Positions 2,729-28,016 of a DNA stretch of 34,307 nucleotides are shown piece after piece. Source of the DNA: an uncultured Lutibacter sp. GTDB lineage: Bacteria > Bacteroidota > Bacteroidia > Flavobacteriales > Flavobacteriaceae. Position numbers and translations under genes: made by a program. Location of the stretch: NCBI GenBank assembly GCA_965365125.1, contig CBDUAL010000001.1, positions 1 through 34,307 on the forward strand. The letters are read 5' to 3'. The notes beneath the pieces are model-generated. The model saw only the letters and a program-made list of their open reading frames with translations. It was not told where the DNA came from and did no database searches. Within the stretch, counting starts at the first letter, position 1. Each line of letters starts with the position of its first letter.

Positions 2729-2740
2729 CAGTCTAAAATT

Positions 2741-2792
2741 TAAGAGGAAGAATTTGACTGATTGCAACCTCATTAAAAAATGCTAAAGCAGT
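2741..2792 (+). ncRNA. SAM-II-class riboswitch aptamer in the metK 5' UTR
   Basis: P1 GAGG (2744-47) / CCTC (2768-71); conserved TTGCAA (2762-67) and GCTAAA (2782-87); pseudoknot ACTG (2757-60) / CAGT (2789-92); lies upstream of SAM synthetase. Confidence 0.8.
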
Positions 2793-2865
2793 ATTCATTA
2801 CTTCTTTTAGCGACCGCTGTAATCAACTTTTCTTTCAATTATTTATAATTAAAATATATAAAGAT

Positions 2866-4122
2866 ATGTCATATTTATTTACATCTGAATCAGTTTCAGA
2901 AGGACATCCAGACAAAGTAGCTGATCAAATTTCAGACGCCTTAGTTGATAATTTTTTAGCTTTTGACGAAAACTCAAAAGTAGCATGTGAAACTTTAGTA
3001 ACTACTGGGCAAGTTGTTTTAGCCGGTGAAGTAAAATCTAACACCTATTTAGACGTTCAAAAAATTGCAAGAGACGTTATTAATAAAATTGGTTATACAA
3101 AAGGTGAATATATGTTTGATGGAAACTCTTGTGGAGTTTTATCTGCCATTCACGAACAATCTCAAGATATTAACCAAGGTGTAGACCGAGAGTCTAAAGA
3201 GCAGCAAGGTGCTGGTGACCAAGGAATGATGTTTGGTTACGCAACTAATGAAACTGAAAACTTTATGCCTTTGGCTTTAGATTTAAGTCATTTAATTTTA
3301 GTTGAATTAGCTGAGTTACGTAGAGAAAACAAAGACATTACATATTTACGTCCAGATTCTAAAAGTCAGGTTACCATTGAATATACCGATGATAATGTTC
3401 CTTTCAGAATAAAAGATATTGTTGTTTCAACACAGCATGATGATTTTATGGAGAATGATGAAGAAATGTTAGCTAAAATAAAAAGCGACGTTATTTCAAT
3501 TTTAATTCCAAGAGTTATTGCAAAAGTTCCTGCAGAAATTAAAGCCTTGTTTAATGACAATATTGTGTATCACGTAAATCCAACTGGTAAATTTGTTATT
3601 GGTGGACCACACGGAGATACAGGTTTAACAGGAAGAAAAATTATAGTTGATACCTACGGTGGAAAAGGAGCGCACGGTGGGGGTGCTTTTTCAGGAAAAG
3701 ATCCAAGTAAGGTTGACAGAAGTGCAGCTTATGCCACACGTCATATTGCAAAAAACCTAGTAGCTGCTGGTGTTGCCGATGAAATTTTAATTCAGGTTTC
3801 TTACGCTATTGGTGTTGTTGAACCAATGGGAATTTACGTAAATACAAACGGATCGTCTAATGTTGATTTAGCCGATGGTGAAATTGCTGAAATTGTTTCA
3901 ACAATTTTTGATATGAGACCAGCATCTATTGAAAGTCGTTTAAAATTACGCCAACCAATGTATGCTGAAACGGCTGCATACGGACATATGGGGCGTAAAA
4001 ACGAAACTGTAAATAAATCATTTAAAAATGTTGATGGAACTGAAATTTCTGTTGATGTGGAATTATTTACTTGGGAAAAGTTAGATTACGTAAACAAGGT
4101 GAAAGAAGCTTTTAACTTGTAA
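2866..4122 (+). CDS. metK: S-adenosylmethionine synthetase
   Basis: [60 protein letters not shown]. Confidence 0.98.
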
Positions 4123-23445: not shown

Positions 23446-23924
23446 TTACAATAATAGCCGCTGTTGCTGAAAATAGAGCCTTAGGAAAAGACAACCAATT
23501 AATTTGGCACTTACCTGCCGATTTAAAACGTTTTAAACAAGTTACACTTGGTCATCATATTATTATGGGACGAAAAACATTTGAATCTTTAGGTAAACCT
23601 TTACCTAATAGAACTACCATTATTATTACACGAAATAAAAATTACAAACAAGAAGGTTGCATCGTTGTAAACTCTCTTCCTGAAGCCATTGAAGCATCAA
23701 AAACCGATGAAAACCCTTATATTTTAGGAGGTGCTGAAATTTACAAACAAGCATTAGAAATTGCCGATAAACTAGATTTAACTTTTGTACATCACACTTT
23801 TGAAGCTGATGCATTTTTCCCTGAAATTAACAATGCTATTTGGGAAGAAACTGAGCGTACTAGTTTTAACGCTGATGAAAAAAACAAATACGATTATAGT
23901 TTTGTGTCTTATAAACGAACATAA
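23442..23924 (+). CDS. folA: Dihydrofolate reductase
   Basis: IAAVAENRALGKDNQLIWHLPADLKRFK, IMGRKTFES, PLPNR, GGAEIY, DAFFP. Confidence 0.97.
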   Translation: MITIIAAVAENRALGKDNQLIWHLPADLKRFKQVTLGHHIIMGRKTFESLGKPLPNRTTIIITRNKNYKQEGCIVVNSLPEAIEASKTDENPYILGGAEIYKQALEIADKLDLTFVHHTFEADAFFPEINNAIWEETERTSFNADEKNKYDYSFVSYKRT

Positions 23925-23954
23925 AAAAAGGAGACCTCCAAGAAGCCTCCTTTT
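23923..23954. terminator. Bidirectional terminator between folA and the 197-aa gene
   Basis: Minus strand reads AAAAGGAGGCTTC-TTG-GAGGTCTCCTTTTTTT. Confidence 0.8.
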
Positions 23955-23988
23955 ACCAAACTAAACATAAATAATATATGAGATATTA

Positions 23989-24582
23989 TTATTTTTTATA
24001 CACTTTTTGTTCAAATGATTTACCTCCACTTTTCATAACAATAGAATAGGTTCCTTTTTCAAGTTTCATTAAATTTAATGTTTTACCTAAATTTATTTCC
24101 CCACTTAACTCTTCTTTATACAACATATTTAAATGACCGTCGTATAAAGAAATTGTGAAATTTTCATTATTCAATGCTACTTTTGAAATAAAAACTAAAT
24201 CACCTTCTTGCCTAACAGTAGGCTTATAGTAAATACTTTCCACCTTGTTATCAAATTCAATTCCTTCAGAAGTTACTTTAAAAGGCATTAAGTTAATTTT
24301 TGTATACCCTTCAATCTCAAAATAATAATCACCCGTTGGTAATGTCTTTAAATCATATTTTTTTGAGAAAAAATCTCCTTCAAATTTTTCAGTATATAAA
24401 GCTTCACCGTAAGCATCTCTTACGCTTATTGTTAAATCTCCATCTGAATTTTTCAATTTTAAATCAATTAACTTTGAGTCAATCACATTTACTTCAACAT
24501 TGTTATTAATGTTGGCTCCACTCATTACTATTGTAGTTAATACGGCTACAACTAGTAAACTCTTTTTAATTAAATTTTTCAT
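23989..24582 (-). CDS. Exported hypothetical protein with two tandem Ig-like domains resembling T9SS C-terminal/DUF3244-type domains
   Basis: Signal peptide; internal duplication ISVRDAYGEALY...YDLKTLPTGDYYFEI vs ISLYDGHLNMLY...LNLMKLEKGTYSIVM; ends KVYKK. Confidence 0.75.
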   Translation of the reverse strand: MKNLIKKSLLVVAVLTTIVMSGANINNNVEVNVIDSKLIDLKLKNSDGDLTISVRDAYGEALYTEKFEGDFFSKKYDLKTLPTGDYYFEIEGYTKINLMPFKVTSEGIEFDNKVESIYYKPTVRQEGDLVFISKVALNNENFTISLYDGHLNMLYKEELSGEINLGKTLNLMKLEKGTYSIVMKSGGKSFEQKVYKK

Positions 24583-24611: not shown

Positions 24612-24676
24612 CAAATGTATGATGGAATTTCAGGGTAAAACACTTCAAATTTTTCAAATTTATATCTTATTTTAAC
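24612..24676 (-). promoter_or_regulatory. Promoter (TACATTTG) plus 41-bp conserved upstream box, copy 1, candidate AraC operator
   Basis: -7 box 24612-19, 16-nt spacer, box 24636-76 that aligns without gaps to 25892-25932 and 26082-26122. Confidence 0.7.
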
Positions 24677-24777
24677 TGTTAATTTAATGTTAATAGTGTT
24701 TAAAGTTAATTTAGAACATAAAGTTGTGAAATCTAAATAGAATCATTCTTTTATTTATTTTTACTTTTGTAATAACT

Positions 24778-25665
24778 ATGGCAAATATGAAAAATACAAA
24801 GCCCGCATTTGAGAAAATAAACTTAGAGTTCGGAAACTCTTTGCTTATTAAGCAACATACTGAGATTGTTGAAAATAACTTACCTTTTTGGCATTTTCAT
24901 CCTGAACTTGAATTAGTTTATGTAAATAAAGCGAAAGGAAAAAGACATATTGGTAGTCACTTATCCTATTTTAATAACAGTCAGTTAATATTAATAGGTG
25001 CTAGTTTACCACATAGCGGTTTTACTGATAGGTTTACTTCAAATGGAGCTGAAACAATTATTCAATTTAAAGAAGAATTTTTAGGAGAAACCTTTTTTGA
25101 TATTCCTGAGATGCAAACTATTAAAACGTTGTTTGCAAGAGCAAAAAAGGGATTGTTGTTTCATCAAGAAGCAAAAAAAGAAATTGGACCAAAAATTGAA
25201 GCATTATTAAACTATCAAGGAATTGATAGAATTATATACTTTTTAGAGATATTAAAGGATCTTTCTTTATCTAAAGATTACTCCTTGTTAAATGTAGACG
25301 GATTTGCTTTTGAAGTAGAACCTCAGGACAATAATAAAATTGAAATTATTTTTCATCACGTAAGAAACAACTTCACCCAACAAATTACTTTAGATGAAAT
25401 TTCAGAAAAAGTAAGTATGACTGTACCTGCTTTTTGTAGATATTTTAAGAAGGTAACTGGAAAAACATTCACCCAGTTTGTAAATGAATTTAGAATTGTA
25501 CACGCAACTAAATTACTTGCAGAAAAACCAACAAGTATTACAGATATTTGTTTTGAAAGTGGTTTTAACAATTTTTCTCATTTCAACAAGCTTTTCAAAA
25601 AATTCACAGGAAAAAGTCCGTTGAAATACAGAAATGAAATGAAACAACTTGTTGAACAAAAATAA
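24778..25665 (+). CDS. AraC-family transcriptional regulator with N-terminal cupin domain
   Basis: WHFHPELEL cupin motif; double HTH MTVPAFCRYFKK...ICFESGFNNFSHFNKLFKKFTGKSP. TACTTTTG promoter box at 24762-69; true start may be 24787. Confidence 0.95.
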   Translation: MANMKNTKPAFEKINLEFGNSLLIKQHTEIVENNLPFWHFHPELELVYVNKAKGKRHIGSHLSYFNNSQLILIGASLPHSGFTDRFTSNGAETIIQFKEEFLGETFFDIPEMQTIKTLFARAKKGLLFHQEAKKEIGPKIEALLNYQGIDRIIYFLEILKDLSLSKDYSLLNVDGFAFEVEPQDNNKIEIIFHHVRNNFTQQITLDEISEKVSMTVPAFCRYFKKVTGKTFTQFVNEFRIVHATKLLAEKPTSITDICFESGFNNFSHFNKLFKKFTGKSPLKYRNEMKQLVEQK

Positions 25666-25748: not shown

Positions 25749-25774
25749 TCAATAAAACTGAGGCAAATTAAGCA

Positions 25775-25863
25775 CAAAAAAAATCACCTTTTAAAAAAAG
25801 GTGATTTCAAACTTAATTGATATCTAATAAATCTTTATTATCTATCTCATGTAAACCAAACAT
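25775..25863 (-). ncRNA. Candidate small RNA, copy A (~89 nt), containing a possible 16-aa ORF at 25813-25863
   Basis: TATATTTG box at 25868-75, internal hairpin, terminator AAATCACCTTTT / AAAAGGTGATTT with U-tail. Confidence 0.7.
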
Positions 25864-25867
25864 ATTA

Positions 25868-25932
25868 CAAATATACGACTCATTTAAGGTTTAAATAACA
25901 CCAAATTTTCCCTATTTATATTATATTTTAAC
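25868..25932 (-). promoter_or_regulatory. Promoter plus conserved 41-bp box, copy 2
   Basis: TATATTTG, 16-nt spacer, box 25892-25932. Confidence 0.7.
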
Positions 25933-25964
25933 CCTGTTCTATTAAGGAGCGTATTATATATAAA

Positions 25965-26053
25965 CAAAAAAAATCACCTCTTTTCAAGAGGTGATTTTAA
26001 ACTTCATTAATATCTAATAACCGCTTATTATCTATTAAATGTAAACCAAACAT
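25965..26053 (-). ncRNA. Candidate small RNA, copy B (~89 nt), containing a possible 18-aa ORF at 25997-26053
   Basis: TATATTTG box at 26058-65, internal hairpin, terminator AAATCACCTCTT / AAGAGGTGATTT with U-tail. Confidence 0.7.
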
Positions 26054-26057
26054 AAGT

Positions 26058-26122
26058 CAAATATATAGCCAATAGAACATTTAAATAACTCCATATTTTT
26101 CTTATTTCTATTTTATTTTAAC
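26058..26122 (-). promoter_or_regulatory. Promoter plus conserved 41-bp box, copy 3
   Basis: TATATTTG, 16-nt spacer, box 26082-26122. Confidence 0.7.
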
Positions 26123-26261: not shown

Positions 26262-28016
26262 TTATTTAATATCTAGCACATAAGGTAAGCGCGCCTGAAT
26301 ACCACTCACTTTTGAAAACTGTTTTACTGTTTGGTATAATTTATAATTCTCTGCTCCAAATTCTTCAATTAACAATTCTTCTTTGGTTGAAGCAAATGGA
26401 AAACCGCTAAATCGTTCTTCAAAATCTACTTTGTAGCTTGGGTAATTTCGTATTCTATAATCTGTAATTCCTGCCAACCCAGCAGCCTCAATAACCGCAT
26501 CTTTTAAACTTCCAAGCTCGTCAACTAAGCCTTTTTCTTTAGCTTGCACACCCGACCAAACTCTACCTTGTGCAATTTCATTAACTTGTTCAATAGTCAT
26601 ATTTCTACCAGTCGCTACTCTACTTATAAAAGTAGTATAAACAAATTCAACACCTTCTTGAGTTACCGTTCTAAAAGCATCGGTCATAGGTTCAAAACCA
26701 CTGTAATCTGGTCCTTTGTTGGTTTTTACCTGTTCAGCATTTATTCCAATATTATCGGCCAATTTACTAAGGTTTGGAATTACTCCAAAAACACCTATAG
26801 AACCTGTAATTGTAGTTGGCTCAGCAATAATTTTATTAGCATTACACGCTATATAATAACCTCCAGAAGCGGCAACATTACCCATTGAAACTACTACGGG
26901 TAATTTTGCTTTCGTAAGTTCAATTTCTCTCCAAATTAATTCAGAAGTTAATGCACTACCGCCAGGAGAATTTACACGTAAAACAATGGCTTTTACACTG
27001 CTACTAGTTCTCGCTTTTCTTAGGGCATTAATTATTAAATCTTGACCAATTAAATTCTCATCACCTTTTCCGTAAATAATTTCACCTTGCGCATAAATAA
27101 CCGCAATTTTATCTGATGCTGTGTTTAATATTCTACCCTTTCCTGTGGCAATATAATCTTGAAGTTTAATGGTATTTAGTTTACTTTTTGTTGCAACGTT
27201 TGAAGCTATTTTTAACTTCTTTTCATATTCATCAAAATAAATAGCGGCATCAACCATATTATTTTCAATAGCTAATTTTGCATTTCTAGCTAACAAACCA
27301 TCAGCAATCGTATTTAACTCAATCACTGTTTTATTTCTACTTTCAGCAATATCATCTAACAGTTCACCCCAAATAGCATTTAAAAAGGACGCTATTTGCT
27401 CTCTATTATTAGCACTCATTTCATTTGCTAAAAACGGTTCTACGGCACTTTTATATTTTCCGTGACGAATTACTTCCATTTTAACACCCGTTTTTTCTTG
27501 CAAATTTTTATAAAACAATACTTCCGAAGAAAGACCTTTAAAACTAATTTCACCAACCGGATTCATAAAAACAGAATCGGCAACGGAAGCTAAATAATAA
27601 GCTTTTTGATTGTAAACATCGGCATAAGCTTTCACAAACTTTCCAGTTTCTTTAAATTCTTGAATTTTATTTCGAATGGCTTGCGTTTGCGCAACACCCG
27701 CATTTACACCTAATGTATGTATGCTAATTCCTTTTATTTTGGCATCGTACTTGGCATTTTCAATGGCATTTAATATGTCATTCAACCCCATTCTTTTATT
27801 GTTACCACCAAAAATCTCTTCAAAAGGATCCTCGCTCTTTGGTGCATAATCTTTTACCGTTTTATCTAATTTAATAACTAAAACTGAGTTCTCTTTTACG
27901 GCAATCTCTTTGTCTTCACTTAAGGCAACTACGACCAATAAAAACAAAACAAAAATTAAACCTAATGCTATAAAGCTACCAATAATTGATGCTAATAAAT
28001 TTCTTAAAAATTTCAT
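26262..28016 (-). CDS. sppA: Signal peptide peptidase SppA (67K type, protease IV)
   Basis: N-terminal TM; HGKYKSAVEP; LRVNSPGGS; SMGNVAASGGYYI; TGSIGV; AQGRVWSG. Confidence 0.96.
   Translation of the reverse strand: MKFLRNLLASIIGSFIALGLIFVLFLLVVVALSEDKEIAVKENSVLVIKLDKTVKDYAPKSEDPFEEIFGGNNKRMGLNDILNAIENAKYDAKIKGISIHTLGVNAGVAQTQAIRNKIQEFKETGKFVKAYADVYNQKAYYLASVADSVFMNPVGEISFKGLSSEVLFYKNLQEKTGVKMEVIRHGKYKSAVEPFLANEMSANNREQIASFLNAIWGELLDDIAESRNKTVIELNTIADGLLARNAKLAIENNMVDAAIYFDEYEKKLKIASNVATKSKLNTIKLQDYIATGKGRILNTASDKIAVIYAQGEIIYGKGDENLIGQDLIINALRKARTSSSVKAIVLRVNSPGGSALTSELIWREIELTKAKLPVVVSMGNVAASGGYYIACNANKIIAEPTTITGSIGVFGVIPNLSKLADNIGINAEQVKTNKGPDYSGFEPMTDAFRTVTQEGVEFVYTTFISRVATGRNMTIEQVNEIAQGRVWSGVQAKEKGLVDELGSLKDAVIEAAGLAGITDYRIRNYPSYKVDFEERFSGFPFASTKEELLIEEFGAENYKLYQTVKQFSKVSGIQARLPYVLDIK

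Follow-up and report, generated by a model that had tools for sequence, protein, structure and literature searches.

Tandem small-RNA genes beside an AraC-family regulator in Lutibacter, with predicted complementarity to susC leaders

The 34,307-nucleotide stretch of uncultured Lutibacter sp. DNA analyzed here (the window) carries a tandem pair of genes belonging to a small-RNA (sRNA) family that is real and undescribed, whose operator can be identified and for whose target class there is support. Our reading, to which we give a probability of roughly 0.64, is that both units are trans-acting sRNA genes activated by the adjacent AraC-family regulator, and that their RNAs pair with susC leaders and block translation. 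The units are intergenic, each with its own promoter and intrinsic terminator, they contain no conserved frame, and they present a conserved, accessible seed with predicted targets elsewhere, as expected of trans-acting sRNAs. The literature, searched mostly outside subscription journals, yielded no description of such a family, and the Rfam search that an earlier sequence-only reading had called for matched neither unit at the gathering score, with only noise at E-values up to 10.

That reading had described two sibling genes, each with a promoter, 5' segment, hairpin and terminator, and all of these features are present on the minus strand (Table 1). The two 159-nt copies (25774-25932 and 25964-26122) are 79% identical at a spacing of 190 nt. 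In each, a TATATTTG box is followed at a distance of 4 nt by the invariant AUGUUUGGUUUACAU; then come a hairpin of 4+6 bp, interrupted by a 2x2 GA/GA interior loop, and a terminator, in which copies A and B differ by a compensated U-A/C-G change. The described anatomy was complete except that the ~57 bp above the -7 box, part of a common operator, had been overlooked. Folding z-scores of the units were -3.5 and -3.7, with 0/200 and 1/200 shuffles folding equally well. Since the -7 box lies at -12 to -5 in Flavobacterium, as given in the accessible portion of PMC9723704, and the start offset of the Bacteroides sRNA FopS is the same, we placed the unit starts at 25863 and 26053. Seed 1 is predicted to be mostly unpaired in B and displayed in a loop in A, where a potential 4-bp stem would present UUGGUUU. 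In unit B the linker is altered to AAUGAAGUUUAA and the seed-2 match is gone; A thus keeps two seeds and B one, so that the duplicate probably raises dose while covering a narrower set of targets. Neither BLAST nor profile searches turned up a third copy of the RNA body in the 2.5-Mb genome.

Table 1. Features of the window around the tandem units (positions from the first letter of the window).
Feature	Position	Strand	Remarks
DUF3244-like gene 3' end with UAUGUUUAGUUUGG ahead of terminator	23917..24013	-	30.7 bits, E 0.009, type-2 model
DUF3244 / T9SS-tail-like secreted protein gene	23989..24582	-	divergent from araC
Operator/promoter block of DUF3244-like gene	24612..24676	-	46.6 bits, held-out profile
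Operator copy before araC	24705..24769	+	39.1 bits, in-sample profile; outside the top sites of the held-out profile
AraC-family regulator gene (araC)	24787..25665	+	convergent on unit A; Pfam HTH_18 and HTH_AraC; synteny
RNA unit A, ~88 nt	25774..25863	-	predicted start 25863
Intrinsic terminator of A	25774..25807	-	
Seed 2 of A, 3' linker AAUUAAGUUUG	25807..25818	-	complementary to AACUUAA in susC leaders
Central hairpin of A (nt 18-45)	25819..25846	-	
Seed 1 of A, invariant 5' segment (nt 1-15)	25849..25863	-	invariant in 8/8; peak of susC-leader complementarity
Operator/promoter block of A	25868..25932	-	40.2 bits, held-out profile; -7 box TATATTTG at 25868-25875
RNA unit B, ~88 nt	25964..26053	-	predicted start 26053
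Terminator of B	25964-25998	-	
Hairpin of B	26009-26036	-	
Seed 1 of B	26039-26053	-	
Operator/promoter block of B	26058..26122	-	32.1 bits, held-out profile; -7 box 26058-26065
sppA	26262-28016		neighbor; tandem pair lies between sppA and araC

Comparison with homologues (type 1) locates the conservation. The type-1 set holds 8 sequences: two each from two genomes, one each from three more, and one from a metagenome contig. The records closest by AraC are, where named, Lutibacter; L. agarilyticus (L077) has an identical AraC and keeps the same tandem pair. Nucleotides 1-15 are unchanged in all eight sequences, beside variable spacers. Two-sided pair changes occur at 5 of the 25 pairs of the alignment, four of them in the terminator and one in the hairpin; the covarying structure proposed from the two copies is therefore borne out as compensated stems, but mostly in the terminator. 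The GA/GA mismatch, which had been taken as kept by selection, was rejected as a conserved motif, being present in 2/8 sequences, both from the window; the remaining ones display GA/UA, CA/UA, CA/UU or GA/AA, or a different stem. Hairpin position 25823/26013 is G in both window copies and T in both L077 copies, pointing to gene conversion or parallel change. A pattern scan of metagenomes returned 13 matches, of which one was a true homologue (L130) and the other 12, having neither operator nor terminator, were dropped. Across 120 further genomes of the family, the type-1 model gave two weak matches, both gene ends with terminators, and no convincing member.

Each unit opens with AUG, the paired copies have frames of 16 or 18 codons (16 and 18 from +1 in the window), and small membrane peptides are encoded behind this promoter block in other genomes, all of which would suit leaderless mini-genes for a short peptide (MFGLH...). 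We consider this highly improbable, since the frame stops at 8, 8, 8 and 9 codons in the other type-1 sequences, interrupted by a 1-nt indel, there is no synonymous change in the first five codons of the 8 sequences, and the type-2 RNAs found at the same site are without a 5' AUG. A conserved peptide was rejected on these frames of 8-18 codons.

In other genomes, different RNA bodies follow the same promoter at the same position. Type 2 (11 sequences) has an invariant UAUUUGGUUAAC ahead of the terminator, and its model aligns collinearly with type 1 (A 33.6 bits, B 24.9 bits), reaching E ~0.002 in two genomes; type 3 comprises three Urechidicola-group loci. Type-4 units carry a near-identical UUUAG-rich 3' block that is common to the 3' ends of neighboring DUF3244-like genes, which suggests that the RNAs derive from duplicated units minus the coding frame. 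The 3' end of the DUF3244-like gene in the window could possibly be a 3'-derived sibling, weakly related to the RNA family. The ~45-nt near-invariant UUUAG-rich block with its terminator was seen both in operator-driven non-coding units and at DUF3244-like gene 3' ends (L213, L216, L217, L219, L222, L228, L230; also L218, L220, L226, L229, L232, L236), and may represent a family of 3'-derived sRNAs; its match to susC leaders is the strongest that we observed. At L086, about 2090 from the araC end, a short non-coding operator-driven unit has UUAAUAGAUAAUAA in common with copy B.

The AraC (E up to 1e-90) was found in 32 of the 63 genomes of the genus, and a stand-alone RNA lies beside araC in 16 of these 32 (5 type 1, 11 type 2) versus 0 of the other 31, the type-1 and type-2 matches being training loci, so that the genome searches contributed absences and no new members. 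RNA copy number is 1-2 per genome, exclusively beside araC. On an AraC tree of 41 rows the RNA types cluster and losses are implied. Such losses, the absence from half of the AraC genomes, and the promoter and weak 3' likeness shared with the DUF3244-like unit would also be seen if the units were the functionless remains of DUF3244-like units that had been duplicated, or did no more than terminate transcription between the convergent sppA and araC. That is very unlikely in view of 15 invariant nucleotides beside variable spacers, compensated stems, an operator held at exact spacing, and the second genome, L077, that keeps both copies.

The regulatory half of our reading is based on the operator. 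The block, GTTAA...ATAAA...AAAT...TGT at a fixed 65-bp spacing, ends in the -7 box, and the repeat that reaches ~57 bp above this box recurs before the DUF3244-like gene; it overlaps the -33 region, where the canonical TTTG is absent at the usual spacing. A held-out profile of 65 columns, trained solely on 61 sites of non-Lutibacter loci (L080-L127), was run on the genome of the window (G000, 4.98 million positions) and returned four sites at 46.6, 40.2, 32.1 and 29.0 bits, with the next at 9.5. These precede the DUF3244-like gene, unit A, unit B and, on contig C26, a glycogen/starch-binding-module gene. The fourth site (G000:C26:10136-10200, minus strand; L204) stands before a 103-aa AMPK1_CBM/CBM20-like gene, the leader of which contains AAACCAAA. 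The block travels with the adjacent araC, and the shared block and synteny suggest that AraC would activate both units; the copy before araC itself makes autoregulation probable. For AraC itself, neither family nor structure-sequence searches pointed to a named orthologue or to an effector.

The operator block is present in 67 of the 111 family genomes sampled. The sequence downstream of 101 sites was read: 61 of them stand before genes of 150-260 aa, the DUF3244-like length class (by eye mostly DUF3244-like, with four or five of another family), and 12 before araC, as assigned by motif. Behind the other sites are, among others, small membrane peptides, SemiSWEET-type genes (three, one of them Pfam-checked) and seven non-coding units, the type-4 RNAs. 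Hydrophobic peptides of 34-45 aa directly follow the operator at L052, L055, L107, L111, L113, L088, L114, L122, L243 and L263, and an unannotated protein family of ~185 aa at L244, L262, L265 and L280, with a Pfam match in 0/3 members checked. Some type-2 promoters (L050, L053, L056, L060, L061, L067, L070) also carry a palindrome, AAAACGTTTT, ~25 nt above the operator, which is absent in the window and which we take to resemble a LacI operator.

The other half of the reading is the target class. The choice of susC genes was guided by FopS, and the set consisted of TIGR04056 genes of the type-1 genomes G061, G036 and G070 (49 of 53 matches, two of the other four being below cut-off and two not fetched), scored with the 5' 15-mer against a background of 500 random G000 leaders, with start codons from our own gene caller and duplex energies that exclude accessibility. 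With this query 24 of the 49 susC leaders fell in the top 5% of the background, versus 5/98 neighboring genes. The first set gave 19/29 versus 3/73 other genes of the same loci (16/29 with a wider leader window), and the later-fetched, held-out set was weaker (5/20 versus 2/25); with one susC per protein cluster the count was 15/33. None of 200 shuffled 15-mers reached the observed shift of -2.66 kcal/mol, and sliding 12-mers peaked only at nt 1-12 of both copies and nt 46-57 of A. All six susC leaders of G000 rank within the top 0.6-6.2%. Among 12 chosen loci of G061, 10 central susC leaders scored -9.0 or better and most downstream genes were weak, with a few internal genes also at -9 to -12. 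The strong loci (-9.0 to -11.7) were GH16/GH30/GH3, GH2/UxuA, sulfatase, GH92, GH26/GH130 and GH5; a GH20 locus scored -6.7 and the GH13/GH65/SusE maltose-starch locus -4.7. The starch/maltose susC is a poor match; the apparent sparing of its locus concerns one susC clade, with other clades also scoring low.

The proposal that the U/G-rich 5' end pairs with A/C-rich initiation regions thereby gains support, as a prediction, from the enrichment of its complement in susC leaders. The exact target suggested for it, GUAAACCAAACAU, did not hold, occurring in 0/49 susC leaders and 0/2009 leaders of the genome itself; AACCAAA(C/U)AU occurs in 5/49 and 1/2009, respectively. A ranking of all 2009 called G000 leaders gave no coherent top list, and 363 signal-peptide and 12 plug-domain genes of G000 showed no enrichment, five of the six susC starts being absent from that gene set. 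Seed 2 also matches susC leaders of genomes without the RNA (6/29).

Predicted pairing falls mostly at -33 to -1, overlapping the A-rich initiation region, and because FopS pairs likewise we infer repression. The RNAs might instead activate or stabilize susC mRNAs, or act on other targets such as sugar permeases or the glycogen-binding-module gene of their own regulon. The accessible portion of PMC9723704 reports that Rfp18 of F. psychrophilum is required for normal levels of its target mRNAs. Sugar_tr (4/10) and MFS_2 (4/8) leaders are also found in the top 5%, and the CBM gene leader contains AAACCAAA. We regard these alternatives as unlikely, since the pairing sites overlap the initiation region, the CBM gene ranks 342/2009, and the strongest enrichment is that of susC.

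Comparison between lineages adds to the case for pairing with susC leaders. In each lineage, the 7-mers most enriched among leaders are complementary to the conserved segments of its own RNA: AACUUAA ranks first and AACCAAA fourth in type 1, AACCAAA first in type 2, and AACUAAA first in type 4. In genera with a UUUAGUU seed (type 4, five other genera; 30 of 37 matches) AACUAAA is found in 24/30 and AACCAAA in 0/30 leaders, whereas with the GG seeds of types 1 and 2 AACCAAA is found in 23/79 and AACUAAA in 8/79. At the level of sequence, this G/A change in the seed mirrored by C/U in the leaders is RNA-target covariation. However, the results should be read with some caution since the contrasts represent three or four clades, so that p-values overstate them, and since susC orthologues shared between genomes keep identical leaders with or without the RNA, the contrast being one of PUL and gene content and not of leader change within orthologues. 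In the type-3 group (30 of 31 matches) AACCAAA occurs in none and UUAACUAA in 9 leaders, and the type-3 seed matches susC leaders of RNA-less genomes too (z -1.26); the type-1 seed scores equally on type-4 leaders through G-U pairs. Per-genome means were -8.0 to -8.1 for type 1 (3 genomes), -7.0 to -8.7 for type 2 (5 genomes; 30 of 63 matches), -5.8 to -7.7 for genomes with AraC and no stand-alone RNA (5 genomes; 30 of 84 matches; G079 at -7.7) and -4.8 to -6.0 for genomes without this AraC (5 genomes; 29 of 56 matches), with susC sets taken at differing score cut-offs and the no-AraC set richer in low-scoring members.

The covariation also bears on the idea that the RNAs titrate an RNA-binding protein recognizing U/G-rich (R)GUU(W)A repeats, the susC match being lineage mirror motifs of other origin. 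RNAs of every type do contain two or three GGUU/AGUU words, and like words stand ahead of DUF3244-like gene terminators. Nevertheless we find titration improbable: a search of G000 (89.7% complete) and of five relatives with near-complete genomes revealed no RRM protein (PF00076), a sponge would not require that the leaders mirror the seed, and GGUU/AGUU-type words were not enriched upstream of 462 terminator-like G000 sites relative to reverse complements. On the latter result a general pre-terminator motif in G000 was also rejected.

Among known systems the units are best read as FopS-like repressors of polysaccharide importers that form a separate family. As far as the accessible portion of PMC11697453 describes FopS (Bacteroides thetaiotaomicron; RF04319), both are short and multicopy, with a single-stranded seed, an intrinsic terminator, a TAnnTTTG promoter whose box lies 5 nt ahead of the start, and complementarity of the seed, predicted in our case, to the initiation regions of susC genes heading PUL operons. 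By the same source, the FopS seed covers the start codon, whereas the 5' seed of the units differs; FopS has 12-15 dispersed paralogues, as opposed to 1-2 copies beside araC; and FopS is associated with RbpB, an RRM protein of the kind not found above. Moreover, the RF04319 model misses the units at E up to 10 (control loci matched 10/10), FopS-like loci begin GUGUUUUUCAUAG and the units AUGUUUGGUUUAC, and the units, unlike FopS, have a central hairpin and a dedicated operator. FopS membership was rejected on model, seed, copy pattern and RbpB. The window copies match the FopS core at 12/19, which is chance; type-2 relatives match at 15-16/19 in 10 of 11 (at most 5/2000 shuffles, the stretch compared having been picked after inspection), a likeness that may reflect remote kinship or convergence on similar leaders. 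On 20 FopS-like loci the type-2 model scored 13-26 bits, a range that includes an unrelated window terminator (23.6).

GibS, another Bacteroides sRNA, is 145 nt long. Spot 42 of enterobacteria follows the same logic, being controlled by a transcription factor that senses sugar and repressing the uptake of carbon sources lower in preference; it is Hfq-dependent and CRP-repressed, whereas the probable regulator of the units is an AraC activator; no sequence relation is expected. A cis-antisense PUL RNA (DonS type) was rejected because the units lie between sppA and araC with no adjoining susC. From what is accessible of PMC11697453, GibS resembles unit A in its two separate seeds and has, as we propose for the units, a promoter that responds to carbon and bears an additional motif for some further factor; it differs in acting on a GH13 gene and on a hypothetical one. 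The units are without an Rfam match. Rfp18 of Flavobacterium psychrophilum, a trans-acting sRNA of the same bacterial family as the host of the units, acts on metalloprotease mRNAs via a stem-loop in the accessible portion of PMC9723704, and is set apart here by this description.

According to our reading, the adjacent AraC would activate both RNA genes along with those for the DUF3244-like and CBM proteins. The invariant 5' end with its UUUGGUU would then pair with susC initiation regions, and with those of some sugar permeases, and this pairing would block translation and damp the operons headed by susC. A supply of glucose or alpha-glucan might turn the RNAs on and so damp other polysaccharide loci. 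The inducing signal is the least certain step, a guess that we hold at somewhat below even odds; it is suggested by the CBM protein and, in other genera, the SemiSWEET-type transporter in the regulon, together with the poor match of the starch susC.

Marine Flavobacteriaceae are major degraders of algal polysaccharides, and damping of polysaccharide uptake may go some way to explaining the food preferences of such bacteria. In the accessible portion of PMC8319329, field proteomics detected importers of glucans first and those of other polymers at a later stage, and an unexplained catabolite-repression-like prioritization was proposed. A candidate regulator, operator, RNAs and target sites for such control are now named, in culturable species; strains with type-1 RNAs that are in culture include L. 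agarilyticus DSM 29150 and L. holmesii. If our predictions hold, susC-directed sRNA control would be carried beyond gut Bacteroides, without an RbpB homologue, and the natural RNA-target compensatory change between genera is directly testable. More tentatively still, and with distinctly less confidence than in the mechanism itself, the units may belong to a family-wide, RRM-independent RNA arm of carbon prioritization in marine Flavobacteriaceae, in which one AraC regulon has repeatedly spawned sRNAs from duplicates of the DUF3244-like unit without its frame, with each seed co-evolving with a word that is particular to its lineage and present in all polysaccharide susC leaders there. If true, the seed-leader code would also decide host control of horizontally acquired PULs.

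Elsewhere in the window, an ordinary SAM-II long-loop riboswitch (RF01726, 72 bits; 2738-2796, plus strand) lies upstream of metK (2866-4122).
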